Shown: piece by piece, positions 15,538 to 19,244 of the stretch
How positions within the stretch are numbered: the first letter of the stretch is position 1
Layout of the letters: each line of letters starts with the position of its first letter
IMG/VR virus record: IMGVR_UViG_3300020044_003294
Span: 1 to 26,953 of that record
Strand: one strand, 5' to 3'
DNA length: 26,953 nucleotides
Source: a virus
Lineage: Duplodnaviria; Caudoviricetes
Program-made: the position numbers and the translations under genes
Notes under the pieces: model-generated
What the model saw: only the letters and a program-made list of their open reading frames with translations
Databases searched by the model: none
Told to the model about the DNA's origin: nothing

Positions 15538-15545
15538 TATATTTG
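15538..15545 (+). promoter_or_regulatory. Bacteroidota -7 promoter element TATATTTG in front of candidate sRNA
   Basis: Matches TAnnTTTG; -33 element is imperfect. Confidence 0.55.
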
Positions 15546-15548
15546 CAG

Positions 15549-15600
15549 TTCATAGTTATTTGGTTTTAAATTAGGGGTATCGAAAGGTATCCCTTTTTTT
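15549..15600 (+). ncRNA. Candidate ~50-nt trans-antisense sRNA
   Basis: Bounded by -7 element and terminator; 18/20 complementary to the ERF gene start region 21744-21763. Confidence 0.55.
15573..15600 (+). terminator. Rho-independent terminator with GAAA tetraloop
   Basis: AGGGGTATC-GAAA-GGTATCCCT plus T-tract. Confidence 0.85.
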
Positions 15601-15668
15601 ATATGCTATCGGGTATAATTAAGTGAATTTCACCTCCATTATATGTTTTTGCACCCAATCGGGTATAA
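15599..15668. repeat. Two 20-bp imperfect palindromes sharing ATCGGGTATAA (operator-like)
   Basis: 15599-15618 and 15649-15668, 50 bp apart; consensus TTATACCCGA|TCGGGTATAA. Confidence 0.55.
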
Positions 15669-16918: not shown

Positions 16919-17049
16919 GCTATATCATCGGACTAACGACCATTCAGGAGTGGCGTTTCCATTCAAAGAACTTAGCACACTGGAAAAAAATGGATTTAAT
17001 AGAAACAGGAAGATTTAACAACGGAACATTTAAAATAGAGCAAATATGA
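16906..17049 (+). CDS. Small hypothetical protein, 47 aa (MYKLSYIIGLTTIQEWRFHSKNLAHWKK...)
   Basis: Translated by hand; ATGA overlap with the next gene. Confidence 0.6.
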   Translation: MYKLSYIIGLTTIQEWRFHSKNLAHWKKMDLIETGRFNNGTFKIEQI

Positions 17050-17456
17050 AAGATAACCTAATGGACAAAGTAACGTACCTAATAGAACGAGATGGATTAA
17101 ACAAACGCAATAGACACAGAGAAATAATCTACAAGAAATGCTACCTAATGCACAGATTACGAAAAGAGCAGTTAACTCTTGGTGAAATAGGTTCGTATTT
17201 TAATCAGCATCACGCATCGGTTTTACATAACATCGAAACGCATAAGAATATGAACAAGTACAACAAACACGAGTACACAACTATTATTCGTGAATATCAG
17301 GTATTCTTAAAAAACACGGAGTATTATGTTGAACCAAGAGATTTAATTTCAGACGTTATGGATTCTACTAATTTGTACAAGCTCCAGAGAGTTAAACGAT
17401 GGATCAAAGAAGGTAGATATAAAACTTTTGATGCTAATGAAACAAATTTAGAATAA
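17046..17456 (+). CDS. DnaA C-terminal (domain IV)-like HTH DNA-binding protein
   Basis: LTLGEIGSYFNQHHASVLH resembles the DnaA domain IV signature SLPEIG..F.RDHTTVLH. Confidence 0.65.
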   Translation: MKDNLMDKVTYLIERDGLNKRNRHREIIYKKCYLMHRLRKEQLTLGEIGSYFNQHHASVLHNIETHKNMNKYNKHEYTTIIREYQVFLKNTEYYVEPRDLISDVMDSTNLYKLQRVKRWIKEGRYKTFDANETNLE

Positions 17457-17462
17457 TTACGT

Positions 17463-17470
17463 TATATTTG
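17463..17470 (+). promoter_or_regulatory. -7 promoter element TATATTTG of the replication operon
   Basis: TAnnTTTG match in the intergenic gap. Confidence 0.7.
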
Positions 17471-17473
17471 TAC

Positions 17474-17555
17474 AGGTGTTGCAGACCTTATAAAAATATT
17501 ATTGAAAGTCCATTAGGGAGTAGTGCTGCAACCACGAAACTTAATGGGCTTTTTT
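17474..17555 (+). ncRNA. Structured leader RNA: two kissing hairpins, loop-E motif, terminator-like U tract
   Basis: Complementary 7-nt loops GTTGCAG and CTGCAAC; 13-bp outer stem; AGUA/GAA internal loop. Confidence 0.65.
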
Positions 17556-17574
17556 ATTGCTTAAAATGTTGCAG

Positions 17575-18240
17575 ATGAGCGGATGGATTAAATTAGACAG
17601 GGAAATTACTTCCCATTGGATTTTTGAGGATTCTTGGAAATTTAGAAATTGGATTGACTTACTTACATTAGTTAATCATTCAGAACAAAAGGTAAATATC
17701 AAAGGAACGGTTTTAACTTGTTACAGAGGTCAAACATTATGTAGTTTAGATACTTTTGCAAGACGTTGGAAATGTGATAAATCAAAGGTAAGACGTTTTT
17801 TAAAGCTACTTGAAGATGATTCAATGATTGAATTAAAATCGGAACACATAACGACACGCTTAACTATCTGTAAATATGATACTTATCAAGGTGATGGAAA
17901 CGCAGATGAAACGAAAGTGAAACGCAAACGAAACGCAGATGAAACGCAAATGACACCAAACAAGAATGATAATAAAGAAAAGAATATATTATTCGATAAT
18001 TTTTGGACTTTATATTCAAAGTCAGTTGATAAACAAAAGTGTCAAGAAAAGTTTTTAAAGTTGACAGATGACGAAATAAAATCTATATTTGAAACCTTGC
18101 CTTTTTATATTATTCAAACTCCTGATAAAACATATAGAAAAAATCCTTTGACTTATTTAAATGGAAAATGTTGGAATGATATTGATCCAAGTAAGCCACA
18201 AATAATTAACAATACTTTACCTAACGAAATTTGGGAATGA
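17575..18240 (+). CDS. Replication initiator (replisome organizer / lambda O-like); start revised from 17557
   Basis: N-terminal MSGWIKLDR..., wHTH region, C-terminal FDNFWTLY...KNPLTYLNGKCWND; internal iterons; upstream of helicase. Confidence 0.8.
   Translation: MSGWIKLDREITSHWIFEDSWKFRNWIDLLTLVNHSEQKVNIKGTVLTCYRGQTLCSLDTFARRWKCDKSKVRRFLKLLEDDSMIELKSEHITTRLTICKYDTYQGDGNADETKVKRKRNADETQMTPNKNDNKEKNILFDNFWTLYSKSVDKQKCQEKFLKLTDDEIKSIFETLPFYIIQTPDKTYRKNPLTYLNGKCWNDIDPSKPQIINNTLPNEIWE
17897..17951. repeat. Five 11-bp iterons (GAAACG-N5); putative replication origin
   Basis: GAAACGCAGAT, GAAACGAAAGT, GAAACGCAAAC, GAAACGCAGAT, GAAACGCAAAT in tandem, then an AT-rich tract. Confidence 0.75.
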
Positions 18241-19244
18241 TGTATAAAAGACTAACAAACGTAAACAACGAACTTTTTGATATACGCTTACAAAAAGACG
18301 TAAGAGGTAAATCAATTGGTTGGGATTGGGATATACTTCCATACACAATAAAAGAAGGATGTACAACATATATCGGTTCAGCTCCTGCCAGTGGAAAGAC
18401 GGAGCTTTGGTTTGAGATATTAATTAACCTTTCGTGTTTACATAATTGGAATCACGTAATCTTCTCACCTGAAACAGGTAATAGTGCAGAGATATTCGCA
18501 GAGCTTTGTTACAAGTACATAGGTAAACCTTACGTTCAAGGACAGAACTCAATGAGTAACTCAGAGCAAATAGTTGCTGAGATGTTTATCAATGAGCATT
18601 TTATTGTGATTGATCCAATTGACGAAGACTTGACCATTACAAAATTTTACGAGTTAGTTGATGAAATCGAAAAGAAGGAAGGAATGAAGATTCACACGAC
18701 AACTATTGACCCTTGGAACGAATTAACGGAGGAGTTTTTGCCTAGTGACTTAGGACGAGAGGATAAATACCTAAGTAGAATTTTGGGAACTGTACGAAAA
18801 AACGCAAGAAAGACAGGCAGACATAACTGCGTAATTAATCACGTTCGTGACCAACCTATGGTAAGTTCTAAGACAATAGCAGGAACTGACATTAGTTACT
18901 TTCCTATGCCAAGTGCAAGAGATTTCGCTGGAGGTCAAGTTTGGTTTAGAAAAGGACTAAGCGTTTTAATACCTTGGAGACCTCCATTTGGATTGTTGGA
19001 TGGAGATGGACGAGGAGCAGAGAAAAACGAAGTACATTTGAAGGTTGCAAAGAGTAAACCTAAAGGCGTATCAAAAAACGGAGTATACAAAATGTTTTTA
19101 GACCTAGATAAATATCAATACTATATGCTAGATTTTAAAGGCAACCGTATCTACGCAAACCGAACAAAGAAAGTACCTGAACAAAAAAAGCTCACAATGA
19201 CAGAACAAAAGTTAAACGCATTAAACAACAAAGGATGGACATAG
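18237..19244 (+). CDS. SF4 (DnaB/T7 gp4-like) replicative helicase
   Basis: Walker A GSAPASGKT, FSPE, Walker B-like IDPWN, INH motif; coupled to the initiator stop. Confidence 0.75.
   Translation: MMYKRLTNVNNELFDIRLQKDVRGKSIGWDWDILPYTIKEGCTTYIGSAPASGKTELWFEILINLSCLHNWNHVIFSPETGNSAEIFAELCYKYIGKPYVQGQNSMSNSEQIVAEMFINEHFIVIDPIDEDLTITKFYELVDEIEKKEGMKIHTTTIDPWNELTEEFLPSDLGREDKYLSRILGTVRKNARKTGRHNCVINHVRDQPMVSSKTIAGTDISYFPMPSARDFAGGQVWFRKGLSVLIPWRPPFGLLDGDGRGAEKNEVHLKVAKSKPKGVSKNGVYKMFLDLDKYQYYMLDFKGNRIYANRTKKVPEQKKLTMTEQKLNALNNKGWT

Follow-up and report, generated by a model that had tools for sequence, protein, structure and literature searches.

Background

P4 is a lysogenising element that bears an integrase, and its CI RNA, a small RNA excised from the leader transcript that brings about premature termination in trans, confers immunity. 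The c4 RNA carries two addresses in a cloverleaf fold and gates icd/ant, and in the rep control of I-complex plasmids translation of a leader peptide is coupled to pseudoknot formation. Kissing-loop riboswitches (lysine, cobalamin) combine invariant core nucleotides with a competing antiterminator helix. As summarised in PMC4825925, the P4 CI RNA pairs with seqA upstream and seqC downstream, stopping transcription of the replication genes, and both CI and IsrK are precedents there for same-strand control in trans. c4 RNAs have been listed for Proteobacteria and their phages (PMC2864571). Hardly any work has addressed how phages of the Bacteroidota, a dominant group in aquatic habitats, time the replication of their DNA when they have neither repressors nor integrases.

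Organisation of the initiator leader and its gene setting

The window, i.e. the whole stretch of DNA that was analysed, is an entire virus record of 26,953 nt with an estimated completeness of 89%. The closest cultured relatives of its capsid-like protein belong to the Nonlabens phages P12024L/S (31%) and, in a comparison with cultured phages, its helicase is closest to those of Flavobacterium and Riemerella phages, so that a Bacteroidota host is likely. The window contains an element that begins with a promoter of the Bacteroidota type, continues with a 5' loop (L1) and an A/U linker, and ends in a terminator hairpin whose tip (L2) is complementary to L1; the initiator gene follows. The first-pass annotation had correctly located the -7 box, hairpin 1, both loops, hairpin 2, the U-run and the ATG at 17575, and its proposal of an attenuator agrees with this layout, in which a promoter precedes a predicted terminator hairpin with a pairing tip.

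The Bacteroidota-type -7 box TANNTTTG (17463..17470, + strand) was recognised from its sequence and the consensus given in PMC6847099, according to which transcription starts 4-5 nt past the box; the predicted start is therefore at 17475-17476 (+). Taken alone, the motif occurs at chance frequency in the window (21 versus 21 expected); it was present upstream of 38 of 40 elements in a set found by a pattern without promoter. Hairpin 1 (17474..17488, +) is a weak stem of 3-4 bp displaying the L1 address GTTGCAG (17478..17484, +), whose complementarity to L2 is seen in the sequence and in covariation. This hairpin exists as first drawn but is marginal in the window, with an energy of -2.6 kcal/mol and with three pairs or none left by a start 4-5 nt past the box. 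The A/U-rich linker that follows (17489..17504, +; linkers are 79% A+T across elements) is a candidate cleavage site or spacer, and an AA-N(N)-TT motif occurs in the linkers of 25 of 29 address types.

Hairpin 2 (17505..17552, +; -17.0 kcal/mol) is a predicted intrinsic terminator. The 13 bp attributed to its outer stem (17505-17/17540-52) can all form, except that the last three are in fact the beginning of the U-run. Its interior has AGTA (17519-22) opposite GAA in an internal loop and a 3-bp GTG/CAC inner stem, at the tip of which sequence and folding place the L2 address CTGCAAC (17526..17532, +). From its AGUA/GAA geometry, we take the internal loop to be an S-turn of the sarcin-ricin type. 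The terminator U-tract (17550..17558, +; U-run 17550-55), whose T-run is nearly invariant in alignment A1, is the predicted 3' end of an RNA of ca. 82 nt. In silico, hairpin 2 displays the features of an intrinsic terminator, namely a stable hairpin, a U-run directly after it and conservation on the transcribed strand; a simple terminator scan allowing loops of 3-8 nt did not call it.

A third copy of the address (17568..17574, +) lies in the translation start region. It does abut the ATG at 17575, as previously noted, but it also overlaps an in-frame ATG at 17566. The latter has a favourable A at -3 and the former a C, so that the third copy probably lies over the first codons rather than abutting the start. 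The gene itself (17566..18240, +; start at 17566 or 17575) encodes a replication initiator or DnaD-like helicase loader (phrog_2514, E 6e-29; phrog_270, E 5e-12) and is followed, as second gene of the gated operon, by a gene of the primase/helicase family (18240..19244, +; phrog_239, E 9e-11, and phrog_5482). Repeat analysis of the sequence revealed within the initiator gene an iteron-like array with an 11-bp period repeated 5.2 times (17897..17953, +), which by analogy with lambda O is likely to be the replication origin.

Searching the window with the R1 model returned a single full copy of the element, the remaining matches being promoter boxes or unrelated weak ones. Identical TATATTTG boxes occur four times (15538, 15760, 17463 and 21729, all +), heading early and DNA-metabolism units, and only the one preceding the initiator (17463) is followed by a kissing leader. 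At 15538-15605, the box is followed by a simple hairpin and U-run in which no kissing partner was seen; this unit is predicted to give a short terminated transcript, and comparable units with promoter and plain terminator were observed in L253, L255, L257 and L259. A small HTH protein gene (17046-17456) located directly upstream of the gated promoter is a candidate regulator (Bac_DnaA_C, E 4e-6, below cut-off). Further downstream, a sigma-factor-like phage gene (24233-24757, phrog_1740) lies ahead of the terminase and is a likely activator of late genes.

Covariation of the loops and of the terminator stem

Folded as a single sequence, the leader is only mildly non-random on the + strand (z -1.75, with 13 of 200 shuffles equally good; z -0.38 on the - strand), so that the case rests on homologues. 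Relatives collected through their protein (80 loci, of which the 69 with an N-terminal match were examined) already had altered yet complementary loops. A loop-blind pattern in which promoter and S-turn were fixed retrieved 120 viral loci (out of ca. 260 estimated in the collection) and 15 GTDB loci, five of the latter being real, all on MAG contigs. An outer stem together with a U-run was present in 84 of the 105 distinct cores; one of the 21 that failed this filter is a real element (L120), and one that passed (L105) is a chance match, the removal of which leaves 83 elements.

A Watson-Crick complement of L2 of 6-8 nt was found within the first 32 nt of 83 of the 84 terminator-bearing elements versus 1 of the 21 rejected cores, and the complementarity of the 7-nt loops first seen in the window is maintained by covariation across 40 loop types. 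With a single element per loop type, the cognate complement was detected in 39 of 40 cases versus 89 of 1560 non-cognate combinations, with a permutation maximum of 11/40, all counted by loop type. A second loop-blind search, in which only the promoter and a GCCY...RGGC-U6 terminator were fixed, gave 93 promoter-proximal terminators once 10 weak hairpins out of 103 had been dropped; an L2 complement was present in 76 of them versus 250 of 3906 non-cognate pairs. The kissing design is the usual one among the promoter-proximal terminators sampled in Bacteroidota phages, and L1:L2 covariation across the 40 loop types is, from sequence comparison, very strong.

The terminator stem is paired in 91% of cells (61.7% when shuffled) and its covariation reaches 0.767 versus at most 0.295 when slid, its inner pairs being partly fixed by the pattern. 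In the 216 anchored cells of the stem, G-U occurs 45 times and A-C three times, which points to a function as RNA transcribed from the + strand. In 82 of the 83 folds made without constraints, the midpoint of the address is located in a hairpin loop, and the kissing helix, 6-9 bp in total, stops short of the stems. Several types of internal loop occur besides the S-turn, which is absent or replaced in many kissing elements; beyond promoter and U-run, no nucleotide is invariant across architectures. Over 97 addresses, the centres of L1 and L2 are ca. 50 nt apart and the terminator ends ca. 90 nt past the -7 box, irrespective of the height of hairpin 2. The height of hairpin 1 is traded off against linker length (rho -0.48); the difference in hairpin height shows no significant relation to the linker in a test of side-by-side geometry (rho 0.16, p 0.16). 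The element is likely to be a genuine structured RNA with kissing loops, made from the + strand.

One subtype (L022-L059) has a tall hairpin 1 and a short terminator, with a further small hairpin formed in the linker; most of its genomes encode an HTH_3 protein, in contrast to those of the S-turn subtype, most of which do not. HTH_3 matches were detected in 15 of 38 virus records, mostly of the subtype without S-turn; the window is not among them.

The third address copy

The third copy was found in 31 of the 83 elements, all with loops of the CTGC type, and is cognate in seven loop types. In a blind test, only its GCAG core was fixed, yielding 74 matches, 40 with a stem and 34 without. Its two free bases match both L1 and L2 in 38 of the 40 stem-bearing matches, the two misses being chance matches without promoter, and in none of the 34 stemless ones. 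The expectation of the first-pass annotation that all three 7-mers should co-vary is thus borne out in the subfamily of the window (38/38 real elements), in which, from these alignments, the three-site covariation holds. L248 represents an eighth loop type with a cognate third copy, and a lineage without S-turn (L277, L300, L322, L340 and L369) has gained a third copy of its own. Exceptions are the 52 of 83 elements that have no third copy and L305, whose copy has a one-base mismatch. Since the third copy occurs in only 31/83 elements, the two mutually exclusive partners first proposed for L2 are an add-on and not part of the core. As judged by covariation, then, the L1:L2 pairing, the + strand terminator stem and, in the subfamily, the third copy at the start codon are the established parts of the structure.

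In L004 and L191, the third copy lies just 8 nt from the end of the stem, a distance that by estimate is too short for it to reach in cis the tip of an intact hairpin of ca. 19 steps; this argues that the third copy is bound in trans. At L056:1003-1126, AGGCAG loops in the leader are joined to an old, non-cognate third copy and initiator start; this leader is probably a recent recombinant.

Downstream genes, carriers and exchange of the element

Among 67 first ORFs located after elements, 23 match annotated initiator, loader or primosomal families and 9 more belong to the same families without annotation; the others are 5 primase/helicase-like genes, 17 endonucleases, 2 methyltransferases and 11 without useful match. 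Several of the small unknown ORFs are followed by an initiator, and HNH genes by NinG, Erf, helicase or exonuclease genes. Where homologues of the initiator have no adjacent element, a divergent element is mostly found 300-750 nt upstream, at the head of the operon; none was seen within 1.2 kb upstream of the homologues in L020, L067, L069, L072 and L075. No element was detected in the Nonlabens phage P12024S, but such misses carry little weight since elements known from G024 and G033 also escaped the detector. In some genomes two or three elements occur and their addresses differ, which is expected by chance because many address types are available.

Cultured carriers are the Croceibacter phage P2559S, the F. 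columnare FCV-1 group (65 records) and the Flavobacterium phages FCL-2 and FL-1. FCV-1 has one element before the initiator operon and a second before an HNH gene. FCL-2 lacks this HNH gene together with its promoter and its element, and has a different address ahead of its own initiator. The HNH unit of Ficleduovirus FCV-1 lies at L216:5000-5810 and the empty site of FCL-2 at L441:10515-10650. The absence of the HNH cassette from FCL-2 and the variety of first ORFs indicate that the element is a portable unit, independent of the protein encoded downstream. Within the FCV-1 HNH gene, a reverse -7 box is present (L216:5178, -) that is not general in the element family and that could direct an antisense transcript across the HNH leader.

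Once four self-pairs had been dropped, there were 50 disjoint pairs in each of which the identity of one flank was 90% or more; in 9 of them the elements are only 54-71% identical, which suggests cassette exchange. Substitutions affect 30 of 260 address positions, 72 of 679 in the unpaired linker and 76 of 1377 in the terminator stem (address versus stem p 8e-4): addresses change as rapidly as the linker and roughly twice as rapidly as stems. The difference from the stems is inflated, as part of the stem positions were set by the search patterns and certain pairs represent swaps of entire cassettes.

A plasmid-like carrier state of the lambda-dv kind finds no positive support here. A scan of 37 virus records, 25 of them at least 90% complete, revealed no tyrosine integrase, and neither ParA nor a resolvase was present in 38 (0/38 each). 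According to PMC9304149, F. columnare phages, which include cultured carriers, have no ORFs tied to lysogeny, and earlier F. columnare isolates were called lytic (PMC7761591). The plasmid-like or immune state initially proposed for the window is therefore not supported. R1 found no prophage copies in 150 further genomes from the family of the Lacinutrix MAG, among 22 candidates per genome.

Proposed mechanism and alternative explanations

Our preferred reading, held tentatively, is that the element may act as a self-made feedback brake on the replication operon, kissing in cis giving read-through and the short RNA in trans giving termination and a block of translation. In the nascent transcript, L1 would catch L2 before the 3' arm of the terminator is made and so delay closure of the hairpin; a fraction of the polymerases would then continue into the genes for initiator and helicase, with the start region left free. 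As genome copies multiply, so would the terminated RNA of ca. 82 nt or, if the A/U linker is cleaved, the half of it that carries the terminator. The unoccupied L2 of this RNA would bind in trans to L1 where it is exposed on newly made transcripts, resulting in termination, and to the third copy, blocking translation of mRNAs that have been read through. Owing to its address, such a loop would act on a single operon or phage lineage. If such a switch is real, accumulation of the phage's RNA would lead it to damp its own replication genes.

In step-wise folding, the L1:L2 helix has the lowest energy at transcript lengths 17535-17545 (-10.9 to -12.1 kcal/mol) and is replaced by the terminator (-21.9 kcal/mol) only once the 3' arm is out. 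Equilibrium favours the terminator by 9.8 kcal/mol in the window (median 7.2 over 83 elements, the best non-terminator fold lying within 3 kcal/mol in 15), so that the ON state rests on kinetics. No extended antiterminator helix was found, the pairing totalling 6-9 bp. The conserved third copy implies that L2 must at times not be engaged with L1, and pairing that covers the start region of a Bacteroidota gene is expected to repress its translation (PMC6847099); free L2 would therefore be the OFF state and cis kissing the ON state. Canonical -7 boxes, the only type searched for, are not in excess on the reverse strand (13/82 versus 62/318 background windows) and their positions are scattered, so that the IncI/IncB analogy drawn at first fails on its defining antisense RNA. 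Partner sites are not enriched elsewhere in the elements' own genomes either (194 observed versus 143 expected, a few records driving the difference; Wilcoxon p 0.69, 26 addresses). With no sign of a counter-transcript and no enriched partner site, any regulator RNA must come from the leader. In the only RNA run available, which covers contigs only, 0.11 of the words are present and depth is zero at 17510-17643.

Six TGTTGCAG matches in the window, four of them in coding regions, were not taken as targets. In G011 (L423-L425), the address hexamer occurs 51 times elsewhere in the record versus 13.7 expected from other genomes, an excess that is possibly compositional.

Against a feedback brake, intramolecular kissing could keep L2 of the short RNA occupied, and feedback on copy number is less obviously needed in phages that are described as lytic (PMC7761591, PMC9304149). 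The stems into which the pairing does not run, the step-wise folding, the third copy, the 8-nt spacing, the fast addresses and the cassette swaps nevertheless lead us to favour trans feedback over its rivals. A broader reading, on which we are more hesitant still, is that Bacteroidota phages, lytic ones included, might count their own genomes with RNA: portable terminator RNAs of ca. 85 nt with private addresses of 6-9 bases would head every operon for replication, recombination or homing endonucleases and, once released, shut only operons of the same address, providing orthogonal feedback without protein as well as interference in co-infection.

The rival that survives best, although we consider it unlikely, is a throttle or timer acting purely in cis, in which kissing would fix the fraction of read-through (with either sign) and the third copy would later capture L2 in the same mRNA and limit translation, with no RNA acting in trans and addresses drifting by compensatory change. 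The conserved L1-L2 spacing is in line with it, the trade-off between hairpin-1 height and linker (rho -0.48) fits a folded cis complex, no second address copy is enriched in the elements' own genomes, and any downstream gene would be compatible. It is harder to reconcile with the 8-nt spacing in L004 and L191, and addresses that change faster than stems, together with swaps of cassettes between near-identical phages, are more expected of a specificity element.

Distinctly less probable is a protein-dependent gate (lambda N/Q-like or host NusG-type), in which read-through would occur only when a factor sits on the kissing structure and the loop sequence would be incidental. A constitutive promoter followed by a terminator is the classic layout of antitermination and S-turn motifs are often protein sites; an HTH gene also lies just upstream, its Bac_DnaA_C match being below cut-off. 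But many kissing elements lack the S-turn or have another loop in its place, nucleotides other than promoter and U-run are not invariant across architectures, and the co-varying third copy is left without explanation.

Slightly more doubtful again is an activation of the IsrK kind, whereby L2 over the start region would silence the read-through mRNA until L1 of the short RNA frees it in trans, resulting in a delayed switch-on. There is a precedent for a short terminated isoform that activates its read-through isoform (PMC4825925), and L1 and the third copy, being identical, compete for L2. The read-through mRNA, however, already bears its own L1, the scheme applies only to the 31/83 elements with a third copy, and positive feedback on HNH nucleases seems unlikely.

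Very improbable is copy-number or incompatibility control of the plasmid type (IncI/IncB, pT181) by a counter-transcribed antisense RNA in a plasmid-like prophage. The position before an initiator with iterons and the lack of integrase (0/37) would suit it, and initiation by kissing is a hallmark of RNAI/SLI (PMC10724649); yet reverse-strand -7 boxes are not in excess, the unrelated downstream coding sequences leave no possibility of a shared reverse promoter, ParA is absent (0/38) and cultured carriers are without lysogeny genes (PMC9304149). Finally, L1 and L2 form an inverted repeat in DNA, to which the third copy adds a direct one, but an effect at the DNA level, with repeats kept alike by template switching or serving as protein operators and loops without RNA function, is hardly credible given pairing confined to hairpin tips, G-U far above A-C (45 versus 3), spacing conserved in RNA terms and 97 different addresses, which are incompatible with one operator.

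Comparison with known systems

The suggestion that this RNA is undescribed agrees with the Rfam searches, in which no family was matched: the window gave no match at E<=1, the 181-nt region three matches far below gathering, and 16 homologous loci none at gathering. By blastn, the window leader gave only three chance matches of 26-28 nt in cultured phages. A full-text literature search, to which most subscription journals are external, returned nothing on kissing or loop-loop RNAs in Bacteroidota phages; the word 'kissing' is absent from the main text of Fremin et al. 2023 (PMC10690425), neither 'kissing' nor 'Bacteroidetes' occurs in that of Weinberg 2017 (PMC5737381), and no matching motif was found in the available portion of Weinberg 2010 (PMC2864571). 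Fremin et al. describe unnamed Caudovirales RNAs (DNAVirus_1203, 4940, 773, 3557, 8377 and 8401) located within 25 nt of NUMOD4/HNH or VirE_N genes, the same contexts as here; an aquatic habitat is given for DNAVirus_1203, 4940 and 773, all three of which are flagged as non-terminators (PMC10690425). These candidates may overlap the element family, as compared by tables and gene context (PMC10690425). On the covariation evidence, the family is a real and widespread RNA control element of the same-strand antisense/attenuator kind; it is absent from Rfam and apparently uncatalogued. To this, the window adds covariation across three sites, carriers in culture and a cassette with an HNH gene.

A ligand-binding kissing-loop riboswitch was considered and rejected: internal loops vary by architecture and the best non-terminator fold is worse by a median of 7.2 kcal/mol (less than 3 in 15/83). 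As in I-complex plasmid rep (RNAI/SLI kissing, repZ pseudoknot), the tip of a stem-loop pairs beside the initiator start and the loop is the specificity determinant (PMC10724649), although here this arrangement is found in the third-copy subfamily only. The plasmid system, in contrast, requires a counter-transcribed RNA, of which there is no sign here, and its control is translational, while the loop studied here tops a terminator (PMC10724649). The likeness to IsrK of Gifsy-1 is that a single promoter yields both a short, terminated RNA and, by read-through, an mRNA whose translation start is under pairing control; IsrK, however, activates translation of an antirepressor operon, and that account describes no kissing-loop address for it (PMC4825925). 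The c4 RNAs of P1/P7 (RF01695, a1b1 targets) likewise are same-strand antisense RNAs with short variable specificity sequences in phages (PMC2864571). They differ in that the present element does not match Rfam, has one address instead of two and no cloverleaf, and gates DNA-metabolism operons instead of icd/ant.

FCV-1 and FCL-2, which are cultured and share a host species but have different addresses, make the mechanism directly testable. If the RNA acts in trans, the family would offer a collection of naturally occurring, mutually orthogonal RNA attenuators to a phylum in which genetic parts are few; if address-specific RNA counting is true, some hundred specificities that phages exchange in cassette form are already available from nature.

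The closest parallel, P4 CI, was already drawn in the first-pass annotation and holds: the antisense lies on the strand of its targets, which are located both upstream and downstream, in the leader of replication genes (PMC4825925). Both targets are found here when L2 is set against L1 and the third copy (31/83 elements), and control by premature termination, as in P4, is predicted by analogy (PMC4825925). The differences are that here the antisense sequence sits at the tip of an intrinsic terminator hairpin and forms a loop-loop helix of 6-9 bp, that the downstream target is optional, and that hosts are Bacteroidota and carriers lack integrases, with no match in sequence or Rfam. P4-type immunity in an integrase-bearing lysogen has no counterpart here, integrase (0/37), resolvase (0/38) and, according to PMC9304149, lysogeny ORFs being absent. 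With no Rfam match, no lysogeny genes and a differing architecture, the element is not a member of the P4 CI family, but it is P4 CI that it works most like; if it acts in trans, it would extend same-strand antisense control of the P4/c4 style to non-lysogenic phages.
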